From Pseudomonadota bacterium (GTDB taxonomy: Bacteria; Pseudomonadota; Alphaproteobacteria; Caulobacterales; Caulobacteraceae): 64,000 nucleotides of DNA. The notes under the pieces are model-generated. The model worked only from the letters and a program-made list of their open reading frames with translations, ran no database searches and was not told the origin of the DNA. The position numbers and the translations under genes are program-made. The stretch's first letter is position 1, and every line of letters starts with the position of its first letter. The DNA lies in the NCBI GenBank assembly GCA_040388315.1, contig JAZKBZ010000021.1, positions 1,960 through 65,959 of the forward strand, given 5' to 3'. Positions 16,422-24,015 of this stretch are shown piece by piece.

Positions 16422-17066
16422 TCACATTCTGGCGCGACCCACGCCCTTGGGTCGGGGATCGTTGAGGACGAAGAGGGTCGGGGCCAGGCCCGAGGCCCGC
16501 TGTAGGCCGCTGAGCCGGATACGGGTCGACTGGCCCTGGGCGTCGCTCACCGTCCAGCCCACCAGGGCCAGGGGATTGTCGGAGAAGGTGAGCGTGATCT
16601 GGCCCTCGGCCTGCTTCTTGCCGTCGCGGGCGGTGATGGAGAAGCCGTCGGCCATGCGGCTGACGTCGCTGATCACCACGCCGCGGTCGAGCTTGATCTG
16701 GCGGGCCAGGAAGATGGAGAGTGGGGTGGCCATCAGCGGATAGCGGTCGAAGGTCTTCAGGCGCGAATCCGCCACCGAGACATTGGCCCCGTCGGCCACC
16801 ACCAGCAGGCCCGAGGGCGCCTCATAGGCGAAGCGGGCCTTGCCCGGGCGCTTCAGATAGACCACGCCCTGGGTCATGGTTCCGCGCGCGTCGGTCTGCA
16901 CGAAGCGACCCTTGGCCTCGGTCAGGCCCTGCAGATAGGTGGCGGCGCGGTCCACCAGGGCCCTGTCGTCGGCGCTCAGCGGGGTGATGGCGGGACGGGC
17001 GGCGAGCGCGGGCAAGGGCAGGGCGGCGAGGCCGAGCGCCAGGGCGCGTCGTGTCAGTCGGGTCAT
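16422..17066 (-). CDS. lolA: Outer-membrane lipoprotein carrier LolA
   Basis: Tat-like leader; KGRFVQ, LKRPGKARFAY, LVVADG, YPLMATPL. Confidence 0.88.
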   Translation of the reverse strand: MTRLTRRALALGLAALPLPALAARPAITPLSADDRALVDRAATYLQGLTEAKGRFVQTDARGTMTQGVVYLKRPGKARFAYEAPSGLLVVADGANVSVADSRLKTFDRYPLMATPLSIFLARQIKLDRGVVISDVSRMADGFSITARDGKKQAEGQITLTFSDNPLALVGWTVSDAQGQSTRIRLSGLQRASGLAPTLFVLNDPRPKGVGRARM

Positions 17067-17184: not shown

Positions 17185-19329
<2,145 letters not shown>

Positions 19330-19459
19330 CTGGCTCTCCGGGCCGTTTCCTCAACGTTATCTGGGGGATGTTGAGTTAGGATTACCGTGTTGGGTCTCCG
19401 ACGCAATCGGTCACGCAAGTTGAGTTGAGGTCGCCCCGCCCCGGCCCCAGGGTCGGGAC

Positions 19460-20254
19460 ATGAGCTTGATCCACCCCACCGCCGTCATCGCCCCGGGCGC
19501 CCGGATCGCGCCGGACGTGGCGGTCGGCGCCTATGCGGTGATCGGCCCCCAGGTGCGGCTGGCGGCCGGAAACATCGTCGGGCCCCATGTGGTGATCGAG
19601 GGGGCCACCGACATCGGCCCGGGCAACCGTTTCCTGCAGTTCTGCGCCATCGGGGCCGGGCCGCAGGTGGACGGCTGGGCCGGCGAGGCCGGCGCCCTGG
19701 CGATCGGGAGCGACAACGTGTTCCGCGAGTTCGTCACCGTCCACGCCTCCGCCGGCCGCGCCCCCACCCGCATCGGCTCGCGCTGCCTGATCATGACCGG
19801 GGCCCATGTGGCCCACGACTGCGTCGTGGGGGACGGGGTGCGCCTGGCCAACGCCGCCACCCTGGGGGGCCATGTGGAGATCGCCGACCATGCCCAGCTC
19901 AGCGGTCTGGTCGCCGTCCACCAGCACACCCGGATCGGAACCCACGCCTTCGTGGCCGGGGGCTCCATCGTCACCCAGGACGCGCCGCCCTTCTGCCTGG
20001 TGCAGGGGGACCGGGCGCGGCTGGTGGGGCTGAACGCCGTCGGGCTGAGGCGGGCGGGGTTCGCCGCGGGCGAGATCGCCGAGCTGCGGCGGGCCTACCG
20101 CATCCTGTTCCTCGGCGATGGCGACCGCGAGGACCGGCTGGCCGCCGCGCGCCTCGGCGCCGGCGACCATACCCTGGCCCTGATCGAATTCCTGGAAAGC
20201 TCCGGCCGCGGCTGCATCTCCACGCCACGCAGCCGGGCGAAGGTGGCGGCTTAG
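19460..20254 (+). CDS. lpxA: LpxA-like acyl-ACP--UDP-GlcNAc acyltransferase (divergent, orphan)
   Basis: IHPTAVI hexapeptide repeats, AHVAHDC, LGGHV, VHQ, QDAPPF, GLNAVGLRRAGF; lacks the QDLK motif. Confidence 0.8.
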   Translation: MSLIHPTAVIAPGARIAPDVAVGAYAVIGPQVRLAAGNIVGPHVVIEGATDIGPGNRFLQFCAIGAGPQVDGWAGEAGALAIGSDNVFREFVTVHASAGRAPTRIGSRCLIMTGAHVAHDCVVGDGVRLANAATLGGHVEIADHAQLSGLVAVHQHTRIGTHAFVAGGSIVTQDAPPFCLVQGDRARLVGLNAVGLRRAGFAAGEIAELRRAYRILFLGDGDREDRLAAARLGAGDHTLALIEFLESSGRGCISTPRSRAKVAA

Positions 20255-21429
20255 GCGACCGCCGGAACCACCTGCGGATCCTGCTCGGCGGCGTAGTCGA
20301 CGCCCTGCAGGCCGAAGCCGAAGATCTTCAGGAAGTCGGATCGGAAGCCGGCCAGGTCGGCCAGTTCGGGCAGGGTGTCGGTGGAGATCCTCGCCCAGCG
20401 GCGCTTGACCTCGTCCTGGACGGGCGCCGACAGCTCCCAGTCGTCCAGGCGCACGCGGCCGGCCTCGTCCAGGGCCTCAGGACCCGGCAGGACGGCGCGG
20501 AACAGGCGGTCGATCTGCTCGATGCAGCCCTCGTGCAGGCCCATCTCCTTCATCACCTTGAACAGCACCACCCCATAGAGCGGCACCACGGGGATGGCCG
20601 AGGAGGCCTGGGTGACCACGGCCTTCAGGGACACGACCCGGGCGGCGTGGTCGCCGTGCCTGGCGCGGACGGCGGCGGCGGCGCGGTCGAGGTCTTCCTT
20701 GGCCTTGCCCAGGGTGGCCTTCCAGTAGATCGGCCAGGTCAGCTCCGAGCCGATATAGGTGTAGCTGAGGGTCTTGAAGCCCGGCGCCAGGACCCCGGCC
20801 TCGGAGAGAGCGGCGATCCACATCTCCCAGTCCTCGCCGCCCATGACCGCCACCGTGCCGGCGGTTTCCTCGGGGGTGGCGGGCTGGAGCTCGGTCTCGA
20901 AGACCTCGCCCTTGTCGGTGTTCAGGGTCTTGACGGTGACGGGCGCGCCCAGGGGCTTGATGGCCGAGCGGAAGGTCTCACCGGTCCTGGGATGGGTCCG
21001 CACCGGGGCGGCCATGGAATAGACCACCAGGTCCACCTGGCCGAGATTGTCGGCGATGGCCTTGATGGTGGCGGCCTTCATCTCGTCGGAGAAGGCGTCG
21101 CCGTCCAGGGTGACGGCCTTGCGGCCGGCCTTGGCGGCCTCGGCCTCGAAGGCGCGGTTGTTGTACCAGCCGGCGCTGGCGGTCTTGGTCTCGCTGGGCG
21201 CCTTCTCGAAGGAGACCCCCACGGTGTCGGCGCCGCCGCCGAAGGTCGCCACGATCCGCGAGGCCAGGCCGTAGCCGGCCGAACAGCCCAGCACCAGGAC
21301 CCGCTTGGCCATGCCGGGGATCTCGCCCTTGCCGGCCACATAGCCCACCTGCTGGTGGACGTTCATGGCGCAGCCGGCCGGATGGGCGGTGGTGCAGATG
21401 AAACCGCGGATACGGGGCTCGATGATCAT
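20251..21429 (-). CDS. fabV: Enoyl-ACP reductase FabV / trans-2-enoyl-CoA reductase
   Basis: MIIEPRIRGFICTTAHPAGC, GCSAGYGLASR, AGWYNN, YIG...IYWKATLGKAK, TQASSAIP. Confidence 0.95.
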   Translation of the reverse strand: MIIEPRIRGFICTTAHPAGCAMNVHQQVGYVAGKGEIPGMAKRVLVLGCSAGYGLASRIVATFGGGADTVGVSFEKAPSETKTASAGWYNNRAFEAEAAKAGRKAVTLDGDAFSDEMKAATIKAIADNLGQVDLVVYSMAAPVRTHPRTGETFRSAIKPLGAPVTVKTLNTDKGEVFETELQPATPEETAGTVAVMGGEDWEMWIAALSEAGVLAPGFKTLSYTYIGSELTWPIYWKATLGKAKEDLDRAAAAVRARHGDHAARVVSLKAVVTQASSAIPVVPLYGVVLFKVMKEMGLHEGCIEQIDRLFRAVLPGPEALDEAGRVRLDDWELSAPVQDEVKRRWARISTDTLPELADLAGFRSDFLKIFGFGLQGVDYAAEQDPQVVPAVA

Positions 21430-21508
21430 GGGCGCCTCTTTTCGTGGAGGCGGAAGATACACGGGCGCGGCGCCAGGCCAAGCCGCTCTGCGCGGGGTGA
21501 CATCAAAC

Positions 21509-21616
21509 CCGCTCGTCCCGGCGAAGGCCGGGATCCAGGTCATAGGTCGCGACCTGCGCCAGCAATCCTGAAAACGGCGGATGCATCTGGGTCCCGGCCT
21601 TCGCCGGGATGAGCGG
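21509..21616. repeat. REP doublet / MITE-like element, family B
   Basis: 30-bp terminal inverted repeats with 2 mismatches: CCGCTCGTCCCGGCGAAGGCCGGGATCCAG and CTGGGTCCCGGCCTTCGCCGGGATGAGCGG. Confidence 0.85.
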
Positions 21617-21621
21617 AGGTC

Positions 21622-24015
21622 TTATGGCGGCGGACCCGCCAGCACCTCGCGCTTGCCGGCGTGGTTGGCGGGGCTGACGACGCCCTCGTTCTCCATCCGC
21701 TCGATGAGCGAGGCGGCGCGGTTGTAGCCGATCTGCAGGCGGCGCTGGACGTAGGAGGTCGAGGCCTTCTTGTCGCGGGTCACCACCGCCACGGCGCGGT
21801 CGTAGAGGTCGTCGCCGGAGCCGCCGTCGTCGAAGCCGCCCTCGCCCTCGCCGTCCTCGTCGTCGGCGCCGGCGGTGACTTCCTCAAGGTACTGGGGCTG
21901 GCCCTGCTCGCGCAGGAACTTGGCCACGGCCTCCACCTCGCCGTCGGAGACGAAGGGCCCGTGCAGGCGGGTGATGCGGCCGCCGCCGGCCATGTAGAGC
22001 ATGTCGCCCTGGCCCAGCAGCTGCTCGGCGCCCTGTTCGCCCAGGATGGTGCGGCTGTCGATCTTGGAGGTGACCTGGAAGCTGATCCGGGTCGGGAAGT
22101 TGGCCTTGATGGTGCCGGTGATGACGTCCACGGACGGACGCTGGGTGGCCATCACCAGGTGGATGCCGGCGGCCCGCGCCATCTGGGCCAGACGCTGGAC
22201 GGCGCCCTCGACGTCCTTGCCGGCGACCAGCATCAGGTCGGCCACTTCGTCGATGACCACGACCAGATAGGGCATGGGCTTCGGATCAATGCGCTCGCTC
22301 TCGTAGATCGGCCGGCCGCTGTCGTCGAAACCGGTCTGGACGGTGCGTTCGAAGTGCTCGCCCTTGGCGGCGGCCTCCTTGGCGCGCTCGTTATACGAGG
22401 CGACGTTCCGCACGCCGATCTTCGACATCAGGCGATAGCGGTCCTCCATCTCGCGGACGGTCCACTTCAGCGCGACGATGGCCTTCTTCGGATCGGTGAC
22501 GACGGGCGCCAGCAGGTGCGGGATGCCGTCATAGACCGACAGCTCCAGCATCTTCGGGTCGATCATGATGAACCGGCACTGATCGGGCGACAGCCGGTAG
22601 AGGATCGACAGGATCATGGCGTTGACGCCCACGGACTTGCCCGAGCCGGTGGTGCCGGCGATCAGCAGGTGGGGCATCTTCGACAGGTCGGCGATATAGG
22701 GCTCGCCGCCGATGGTCTCCCCCAGCGCCATGGGCAGGGCGGAGTTCGACTTTTCGTATTCCGCGCTGCCCAGCAGGTCGCGCAGATAGACGGTCTCGCG
22801 CCGCGCATTGGGCAGCTCGATGCCGATGGCGTTGCGCCCCGGCACCACGCTGACGCGGCAGGCGGCGACGGACATGGAGCGGGCGATATCGTCCGACAGG
22901 GCCACGACCCGGGCCGACTTCACCCCGGCGGCGGGGACCAGCTCATAGAGGGTGACCACGGGACCCGGACGGATCTGGTCGATGGCGCCCTTGACCCCGA
23001 ACTCGGCCAGCACGCTTTCCAGCAGCTGGGCGTTCTGGCGCAGGGCGCCCTCGTCGAACTGGCTGGCCCGCGGCTTGGGCTTGGCCAGCATGGAGAGCTC
23101 GGGCAGGGCGAAGCCGCCGGTCTTGACGAAGTCGAAGGCGCCCTGGGCCTCGCGCAGTTCGCGCCCGGATTCCTTCGGCGCGGCCTTGGGGATCTTCACC
23201 GCCACCGGGGGGGCGAAGGGTTCGGGCTCGGGCGCCGCTGGCTGCGGCGGGCCGGCGGCGGTTTCCGGCTTGGCGATGGGCGGCAGGGCCGAGGCGGGGA
23301 TGCGGTCCTCGCCGGTGGTGGCGGCGCGCGCGCTGGCCCGGCGGGCGACCGAGGGGCGGACGGGCTTGGGCTCGGGGGCGGCCTTGGGCTGCAGGGCGCC
23401 GGCCAGCCAGTGGGCGGCGGCGCCCAGGTCGAGGCGGCGCAGGCCCAGCGCATAGCCGAGGCCCGCGAAGGCGCCGATGGCCAGCAGCAGGGCGGCGATC
23501 AGGGTGGCGGCGGGCAGACGGGCGAAGGCCAGGACCCCGGCCACGCCGTGCAGCAGGCCGTCGCCCCAGAACCCGCCCAGGCCCTTGGCGAGCGGCCAGG
23601 CGGCGGGCGCCGGCGGGGCGGCCAGCAGGCCGGCCAGGGCCAGCAGGCCCAGGGTTCCGATCAGGGCGCGCAGGCGGACCTGGGCGCGGGTCTCGTCGGG
23701 GTGGGGGGAGACGGCGCGATAGAGTCCGAACAGCACCATAAGCAGGGCCGCGACGCCGGCGGCCAGGCCCAGGGACTGGACCCCGATGTCGGCGGCGGTG
23801 GCGCCCGGACCGCCCAGGGCGTTGGAGGCGCGGAAGGGGGAGGCGGCGTTGAGGCTGGGATCGCCGGCGCTATAGGTGGCGAGCGCCACGGCGAAGGCCG
23901 CGCCGCAGGCCGCGATCAGTCCGCCCCGAAGCCGCGCGGTGGTCGGATGGGTCCAGGCCAGGCTGGCGATATGCAGCCCCAGCTCCAAACCCGTCTTTCG
24001 CGCCGCCCGCGCCAT
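21622..24015 (-). CDS. ftsK: DNA translocase FtsK
   Basis: N-terminal TM domain, GPVVTLYE, PHLLIAGTTGSGKSV, IDPKMLEL, ATQRPSVDVITG, gamma domain LQIGYNRAA. Confidence 0.98.
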   Translation of the reverse strand: MARAARKTGLELGLHIASLAWTHPTTARLRGGLIAACGAAFAVALATYSAGDPSLNAASPFRASNALGGPGATAADIGVQSLGLAAGVAALLMVLFGLYRAVSPHPDETRAQVRLRALIGTLGLLALAGLLAAPPAPAAWPLAKGLGGFWGDGLLHGVAGVLAFARLPAATLIAALLLAIGAFAGLGYALGLRRLDLGAAAHWLAGALQPKAAPEPKPVRPSVARRASARAATTGEDRIPASALPPIAKPETAAGPPQPAAPEPEPFAPPVAVKIPKAAPKESGRELREAQGAFDFVKTGGFALPELSMLAKPKPRASQFDEGALRQNAQLLESVLAEFGVKGAIDQIRPGPVVTLYELVPAAGVKSARVVALSDDIARSMSVAACRVSVVPGRNAIGIELPNARRETVYLRDLLGSAEYEKSNSALPMALGETIGGEPYIADLSKMPHLLIAGTTGSGKSVGVNAMILSILYRLSPDQCRFIMIDPKMLELSVYDGIPHLLAPVVTDPKKAIVALKWTVREMEDRYRLMSKIGVRNVASYNERAKEAAAKGEHFERTVQTGFDDSGRPIYESERIDPKPMPYLVVVIDEVADLMLVAGKDVEGAVQRLAQMARAAGIHLVMATQRPSVDVITGTIKANFPTRISFQVTSKIDSRTILGEQGAEQLLGQGDMLYMAGGGRITRLHGPFVSDGEVEAVAKFLREQGQPQYLEEVTAGADDEDGEGEGGFDDGGSGDDLYDRAVAVVTRDKKASTSYVQRRLQIGYNRAASLIERMENEGVVSPANHAGKREVLAGPPP

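Follow-up and report, generated by a model that had tools for sequence, protein, structure and literature searches.

The window analyzed here is a stretch of DNA of 64,000 nucleotides from the genome of a soil/water bacterium, a Phenylobacterium of the family Caulobacteraceae. Within it lies the gene for a paralog of LpxA, and the name LpxA2 is used here for the product of this open reading frame (ORF; 19460-20254, forward strand). In the source genome, the gene is part of an insert of approximately 4.5 kb that comprises a kinase, LpxA2, and FabV and is situated between lolA and ftsK. The features of the locus, with positions numbered in the window, are as follows:

16422-17066, reverse strand: lolA (Pfam LolA), a core gene that forms the left edge of the insert.
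17185-19329, reverse strand: PAS hybrid histidine kinase/response regulator (Pfam PAS_3, HisKA, HATPase_c, and Response_reg), divergent from LpxA2.
19400-19427, forward strand: upstream box GACGCAATCGGTCACGCAAGTTGAGTTG, a candidate operator or activator site conserved in 19 aligned loci.
19425-19459, forward strand: candidate promoter, with a -35 element TTGAGG (19425-19430), a spacer of 17 nt, a -10 element CAGGGT (19448-19453), and 6 nt before the ATG.
19460-20254, forward strand: LpxA2, an intact ORF of 264 amino acids encoding an orphan paralog of acyl-ACP--UDP-GlcNAc O-acyltransferase (LpxA).
20251-21429, reverse strand: FabV enoyl-ACP reductase (NF043048 and NF010177, 566 and 547 bits), convergent with LpxA2.
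21622-24015, reverse strand: ftsK (Pfam FtsK domains), a core gene that forms the right edge of the insert.

LpxA2 and FabV overlap by their stop codons (20251-20254), and 145 bp separate the two genes in a relative of 85% identity. The span of FabV has also been given as 20251-21543 of the window; homology to FabV begins at residue 39 of this long ORF, and the gene of the relative encodes 392 amino acids. In five Phenylobacterium genomes without LpxA2, ftsK directly adjoins lolA. The nearest relatives (80-92% identity) have the same arrangement of the insert, but the closest of them (L046) lacks the kinase. LpxA2 is also found beside lolA in P. aquaticum (64% identity) and in another lineage (59-62%). 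In a third group, of 14 loci, LpxA2 adjoins genes for an rRNA methyltransferase and a pseudouridine synthase, and the downstream gene is FtsZ-like or encodes a thioesterase. At these methyltransferase-type loci, a gene for an FtsZ/tubulin-like protein of 356 amino acids (Tubulin and FtsZ_C domains) follows LpxA2 on the same strand, as at L041:8963-10033 and at 10 more loci (L060-L076). This gene is probably a second, truncated FtsZ paralog of a kind known in some Alphaproteobacteria.

The kinase of the insert (17185-19329) has a dN/dS of 0.24-0.42; it is missing from L046 and 74-94% identical elsewhere. Given this fast evolution and its absence from L046, the kinase appears to be a variable passenger rather than a fixed regulator of LpxA2. 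FabV occurs in 12 of 120 genomes of the genus, nine of which also carry LpxA2, eight of them within 5 kb; approximately two such genomes would be expected by chance, with the reservation that related genomes are non-independent. FabV is absent from 13 of the 22 LpxA2 carriers, and the neighbors in other subclades are quite different. FabV is thus a frequent companion in part of the clade and not a fixed partner, and an obligate LpxA2-FabV module was ruled out, as FabV lies nearby in one part of the clade only. Hence, the link to the adjacent FabV drawn in the initial annotation stands as far as co-insertion and the nine shared genomes are concerned, but does not extend to the carriers that lack FabV. 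The source genome encodes two enoyl-ACP reductases, FabV and a FabI homolog (G000 C154:24928-25692; 43% to E. coli FabI).

Public records label the gene plain LpxA. LpxA2 scores above the cut-offs of two LpxA equivalog models, NF003657 (295.1 bits, cut-off 226) and TIGR01852 (277.5 bits, cut-off 231.05), and far under the cut-offs of LpxD and other hexapeptide transferase models. Pfam assigns Hexapep (PF00132; 80.9 bits) and Acetyltransf_11 (PF13720; 72.5 bits). LpxA2 is matched by 17 solved LpxAs with E-values from 1e-56 to 1e-37, and it shares fold family and domain order with E. coli LpxA (1LXA, 2QIA) at 39% identity. The monomer model has the expected LpxA fold, a beta-helix followed by four helices, with a mean pLDDT of 77.8 and low pLDDT at two interface loops. 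The homotrimer model has a score of 0.94, compared with 0.02 for the best of three controls. Among proteins with solved structures, 20 of 30 pairs of one chain and one of 23 single chains reach the mark set for this score. Across the runs of the trimer model, contact agreement was at least 98% and partner pLDDT at least 90. Since LpxA trimers have already been solved, the model is to be read as a likeness only, maybe an echo of solved structures. On this basis, LpxA2 is predicted to form a homotrimer with its active sites between subunits.

When the LpxA model was run against the complete assembly, two sequences exceeded its cut-off: LpxA2 itself (277 bits) and a copy on contig C71 (351 bits). 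The C71 copy lies in a cluster of the order rseP-bamA-(unassigned ORF)-lpxD-fabZ-lpxA-lpxI-lpxB, adjoining gltA, and is 38% identical to LpxA2. LpxA2 is a true second LpxA copy. The initial annotation had placed the gene outside the usual lpx operon, had taken it for a second paralog, and had proposed a look for a canonical lpxA elsewhere in the genome; all three proved sound, as the standard operon with its own lpxA is found on C71. Location in an lpxD-fabZ-lpxA-(lpxI)-lpxB cluster is a usual though not obligatory trait of LpxA, and LpxA2 does not have it: no lpx neighbors were found in the window or at 46 orthologous loci. Complete or near-complete genomes of relatives carry both types on one contig, as in P. 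haematophilum, which backs the assignment of the two copies to one organism. LpxC, LpxD, FabZ, and LpxB are each encoded once in the genome, and LpxA2 is accompanied by no second LpxC or LpxD. A search of the genome for GnnA/GnnB, as a sign of UDP-GlcNAc3N synthesis, returned one DegT-type sugar aminotransferase (contig C129); with no Gfo/Idh/MocA gene beside it, it was not assigned as GnnB. The gene adjoins others for a patatin-like lipase, a fatty-acid--CoA ligase, and a cyclopropane-fatty-acid-synthase-like methyltransferase (L146:2811-8554).

Intact LpxA2 is present in 22 of 120 Phenylobacterium genomes of other species and in 17 of 88 high-quality ones when the source is included, and two of 23 matches in the genus contain an internal TAG. 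LpxA2 is accordingly an accessory gene, found in approximately one in five of the sampled species of the genus, and it must be dispensable, since it is lost or absent in approximately four fifths of them. Among 150 other genomes of the family, from 27 genera, operon-type LpxA is found in every genome with a match, and a second copy of the LpxA2 type is found in two genomes besides the source; outside the genus, where 140 genomes of 26 genera were covered, two genomes have the LpxA2 type. In a set of 1.84 billion representative proteins, only approximately four clusters exceed the general LpxA background (approximately 45% identity to LpxA2). A scan of named genomes recovered the LpxA2 type in many Phenylobacterium species, without lpx neighbors throughout, and in Inquilinus, Aliidongia, and Tanticharoenia at 52-56% identity, again without lpx neighbors. 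No copies of the LpxA2 clade were found on PLSDB plasmids, where all matches fell below 43% identity. Inquilinus ginsengisoli encodes three LpxA genes, two of them of the LpxA2 type and located 1.8 kb apart on the same strand (L082:3482-6777). An opposite-strand amidase gene lies between the pair, which is preceded by a DegT-type aminotransferase gene and followed by an SRPBCC/AHSA1 gene.

The most similar named operon copy is the single LpxA of the Myxococcaceae, at 50-57% identity to LpxA2. The operon LpxA of Corallococcus and Myxococcus and LpxA2 both contain AFVAGG and PPFCLVQGDRA, Met or Ile at 176, and Arg191. In the Myxococcaceae, however, LpxA is the sole, operon-encoded copy and forms its own clade (100/98), whereas LpxA2 is an orphan.

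Phylogenetic placement was based on a careful tree of 83 rows (IQ-TREE, LG+C20 PMSF). In this tree, the orphan LpxA copies form one clade (97/86, or 98/95 with two metagenomic proteins) that holds only stand-alone copies from scattered Alphaproteobacteria. One subclade comprises Phenylobacterium (100/98), and the other comprises Inquilinus, Aliidongia, Tanticharoenia, and one Caulobacteraceae metagenome-assembled genome (95/82). The operon LpxAs of the same alphaproteobacteria form a clade apart from the orphan copies. The branching order of the orphan, alphaproteobacterial operon, and Myxococcaceae clades was not settled by the trees, and a Myxococcaceae origin of LpxA2 is not claimed. A tree constrained to unite Phenylobacterium LpxA2 with the operon LpxA of the family is worse by 114 log-likelihood units (AU p 3.8e-24); this grouping was picked after the tree had been seen, yet is the same one that the initial annotation had named beforehand as counting against its view. 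The trees and the AU test thus rule out that LpxA2 arose by recent duplication of the lpxA resident in the family. The phylogeny proposed in the initial annotation has therefore placed LpxA2 outside the vertical Caulobacteraceae LpxA, and neither of the two adverse outcomes it had listed that were checked, a sole lpxA in the genome and clustering with the vertical copies, was found, given the existence of the operon lpxA and the separate clustering of LpxA2. As judged from the trees, LpxA2 comes from an older lineage of orphan copies, subject to gain and loss. An unpublished genome (G025) supplied a single operon-LpxA row each to the first tree, which has 28 such rows, and to the site table described below, which has 32; it is absent from the careful tree, and no claim depends on it.

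Residues of LpxA2 were aligned to E. coli LpxA as given in the MG1655 record. The initial annotation had listed the equivalents of H122, H125, D126, H144, H160, Q161, and R204 as retained and had read the QDLKY loop as QVDGW (K76 to Gly) and HRG as HAS, and the alignment agrees on each of these; the equivalents of Q73, H99, G143, G173, and N198 are retained as well. Further differences from E. coli LpxA, besides K76 to Gly and R100-G101 to Ala-Ser, are G176 to Ile, H191 to Arg, and R205 to Ala. The roles of the conserved residues are taken from a review, in which Q73, H122, and the H99-water read the R-3-hydroxyl of the acyl chain, H125 and D126 form the catalytic dyad, and Gly143 provides the oxyanion amide (PMC6286764). 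The acceptor is contacted by K76 (sugar), H144 (6'-OH), Q161 (alpha-phosphate), and N198 and R205 (uracil), and H191 serves as the C14 cap in E. coli (PMC6286764). Conservation was assessed in a site table of 120 Phenylobacterium orthologs, 124 diverse LpxAs, and 32 operon-LpxA rows. In the orthologs, the equivalents of Q73, H122, H125, G143, H160, Q161, N198, and R204 are 99-100% conserved, with 100% for H125, G143, Q73, and H122, and D126 is kept in 80%.

The hydrocarbon ruler is the one site at which the residues of the initial annotation have to be corrected. It had assigned Ile to the G173 position and had argued from this bulky residue for short acyl chains. E. coli V171-G172-G173-C174-S175-G176-V177 pairs with V-A-G-G-S-I-V of LpxA2, so that Gly is the counterpart of G173 and Ile that of G176. 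The bulky residue at 173 was thus a numbering slip; Gly occupies this position in 97% of the 120 orthologs, and the argument for short chains falls with it. The M169 ruler of P. aeruginosa (C10) and the E. coli G173M variant illustrate how shorter chains are selected once a bulky side chain occupies the cleft (PMC6408518, PMC6286764). P. aeruginosa LpxA has an acyl cleft like that of LpxA2, but M169 aligns with the same LpxA2 Gly as E. coli G173, and with Gly at that position a short ruler of the P. aeruginosa type is inapplicable to LpxA2. Position 176 is Ile in 65% and Met in 34% of the 120 orthologs; Met is found there in 22% of the diverse LpxAs and in 100% of the Myxococcaceae operon LpxAs. 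In the trimer model, residue 170 of LpxA2 (Ile, equivalent to E. coli G176) and residues 167-168 are located at the inter-subunit cleft. By coordinate arithmetic, we take the C12 ruler of Leptospira LpxA, Lys171, to occupy the column of Ile170. An effect of Ile170 on chain length is possible, for a reason other than G173.

On the acceptor side, H144, Q161, N198, and R204 are present in LpxA2, with K76 and R205 replaced by Gly and Ala. Across the 120 orthologs, Gly takes the place of K76 in 80% and Ala that of R205 in 89%; R205 is replaced by any residue in approximately 95%, and H144 in 25%. The K76 loop is degenerate and variable throughout the Phenylobacterium clade (Q-[IVA]-[DTS]-G-[WR]), and the members from Inquilinus, Aliidongia, and Tanticharoenia have an intact QDLK loop. 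The operon LpxA of the same genome, from which the same reaction is expected, also lacks K76 and HRG, with QHTAY (K76 to Ala) and NVG in their place. K76 is present in 59% of the 124 diverse LpxAs and in 12% of the sampled alphaproteobacterial operon copies. The changes at K76 and HRG are therefore not special to LpxA2. The operon copy does differ from LpxA2 in having H191, R205, and W188, where LpxA2 has R191, A205, and Q188. The replacements of H191 by Arg and of R205 by Ala were rejected as specialties of LpxA2, both being common (Arg191 in 47% and Ala205 in 26% of the diverse LpxAs). The weaker conservation of acceptor residues would also fit a changed acceptor or a relaxed function.

Within the orthologs, Asp126 of the dyad is replaced by Gly in 24 of 120 (e.g., P0023 in alignment A2). 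An acid (Glu or Asp) occupies position 144 in 22 of the 24 orthologs with Gly126 and in none of the 96 that keep Asp126. The distance of 18 residues between the two positions equals one turn of the beta-helix, and the carboxylate may therefore have shifted by a single rung. The pairing looks compensatory, as if the dyad carboxylate had been relocated, and would fit selection for catalysis, though it is suggestive only, as it possibly reflects one or two evolutionary events.

A conserved element (19400-19459 in the window; loci L046-L076) precedes nearly all Phenylobacterium LpxA2 genes, whatever their neighbors. It begins with the box, whose consensus is CG[AT]CGCAATCGG[AT]CAC, two bases, and AAGTTGAGTTG, with the box also written in short as CGCAATCGG..AAGTTGAGTT. 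The box is followed by a variable stretch of approximately 17 nt, the -10-like CCTAGGGTC or a variant of it, and the ATG 6-8 nt further on. In most orthologs (alignment A3), the layout is TTGGCG-N16-TAGGGT-N6-ATG. A simple scan for the sigma-70 consensus found no site upstream of LpxA2. As the candidate promoter would put the start of transcription at or beside the ATG, LpxA2 is probably transcribed as a leaderless mRNA, and leaderless mRNAs are common in Caulobacter. The box would then serve as an operator or activator site at approximately -60 to -36. A structured 5' RNA was also considered and rejected, as the element has no Rfam match and the sequence that separates its conserved blocks varies. 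The full box occurs once in the genome, and two other copies of its 10-mer core lie within long open frames and look like chance; a regulon sharing the box was thus ruled out. A further copy of GTTGAGTT is located at 19370-19377. In 19 aligned loci from two genomic contexts, with orthologs at approximately 60% protein identity, conservation of the box exceeds that of the coding sequence. Conservation of non-coding DNA in excess of that of the protein is a good indication that the expression of LpxA2 is specifically controlled.

The pairwise dN/dS of LpxA2 is 0.17-0.41, in pairs down to approximately 60% identity, and in the genome pairs used for comparison it is 0.20-0.41, against 0.07-0.18 for FabV, FtsK, and LolA, so that LpxA2 evolves two to three times faster. 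Values below 1 yet above those of the three neighbors indicate purifying selection that is looser than on these housekeeping genes. LpxA2 is most likely an active enzyme, as suggested by the invariance of the catalytic residues and those reading the acyl 3-hydroxyl, by the dN/dS values, and by the compensatory-looking swap at 126 and 144; activity data for any member of the LpxA2 clade were not found in the literature.

With moderate confidence, we favor the reading of LpxA2 as an accessory LpxA isozyme, active and separately regulated, whose product enters the cell's one Raetz pathway. In this proposal, LpxA2 would take an R-3-hydroxyacyl chain from acyl-ACP and attach it at the 3-position of the UDP-sugar with which lipid A synthesis starts. 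It would do so not as the housekeeping enzyme but as an accessory isozyme, inserted with the kinase and FabV between lolA and ftsK. The gene would be transcribed alone from its conserved promoter, with the operator-like box upstream, and be switched on by its own regulator. Because the genome encodes only one LpxC, one LpxD, and one LpxB, the product would have to enter the same Raetz pathway as that of the operon LpxA. The likely effect would be a change in the primary acyl chain, in length or type, at the 3 and 3' positions of lipid A, or added capacity, and it would appear under a condition set by the gene's own regulation.

The same acceptor residues could be read as a sign of another UDP-sugar as acceptor or of a role outside lipid A synthesis, on another acylated glycolipid or a polysaccharide precursor. 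The degenerate K76 loop, the replacements of H144 and R205 among orthologs, the absence of other lpx genes beside LpxA2 at any locus, and the two Inquilinus genes that flank an amidase near a DegT-type aminotransferase would all suit such a role. However, the operon LpxA of the genome lacks K76 and HRG too, and K76 and R205 are absent from 41% and 63% of the diverse LpxAs and are thus not diagnostic, while Q161, N198, and R204 are invariant. In addition, no conserved partner enzymes adjoin LpxA2, its neighbors vary by subclade, and the Inquilinus, Aliidongia, and Tanticharoenia members have kept the QDLK loop. We therefore consider a different acceptor unlikely. It is rather improbable that LpxA2 is a redundant, slowly decaying back-up without a distinct role, kept for a while after transfer. 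Its patchy presence in the genus and in the other genera of the family, its evolution at a faster rate than its neighbors, the loss of some substrate contacts in subclades, and the internal TAG in two matches agree with decay; purifying selection that persists down to approximately 60% identity, the conservation of catalytic residues in 120 orthologs, and the compensatory look of the Gly126/acid144 pairing do not. An upstream element more conserved than the protein in two contexts would also be hard to explain without a function.

A role as a non-catalytic or mixed-trimer partner, which modulates the operon LpxA or titrates acyl-ACP, seems highly improbable. Active sites of LpxA lie between subunits, so mixing could alter specificity in principle, and the trimer interface of LpxA2 is predicted to be intact. 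Yet the catalytic His and the acyl-binding residues are fully conserved, which favors catalysis, and the identity to the operon copy is only 38%. The accessory isozyme of the lipid A pathway thus remains the preferred reading. A bolder form of it can be put forward only tentatively: LpxA2 may represent a conserved, separately regulated class of first-step acyltransferase of free-living Alphaproteobacteria, with a specificity for acyl chain or acceptor sugar unlike that of the operon enzyme, through which lipid A would be remodeled in response to a signal read at the box, and in one subclade of which the dyad Asp may have moved by one rung (Gly126/Glu144).

Lineage-specific duplications of lpxA are on record, including that of Geobacter sulfurreducens (PMC3087551). 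LpxA2 itself belongs to an orphan clade of several lineages and is not a recent duplicate within its genome. Another parallel is the condition-switched pair LpxD1 and LpxD2 of Francisella, which differ in acyl preference and regulation, along with other paralogous pairs of lipid A acyltransferases, as in each case one genome encodes two paralogs of an early acyltransferase of the Raetz pathway. One copy lies outside the operon, and the likeness may extend to separate regulation, in that LpxA2 has a separate conserved promoter region. The Francisella pair, however, is a duplication of LpxD, whereas here LpxA is duplicated. In a literature search that was incomplete, no description of the orphan LpxA clade was found, and the name lpxA2 was found only for a temperature-sensitive E. 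coli allele.

For annotation, these results carry a warning, as the plain label LpxA hides a distinct orphan clade. The Gly126/acid144 pairing offers a natural test of rebuilding the LpxA catalytic dyad. Variation in lipid A is usually credited to late acyltransferases, to LpxD paralogs, or to post-synthetic remodeling. If the reading favored here is true, a widespread but optional second LpxA with its own conserved control region would allow lipid A to be varied under regulation as early as the opening step of its synthesis. The bacteria concerned are environmental Alphaproteobacteria, in which lipid A has been little studied.
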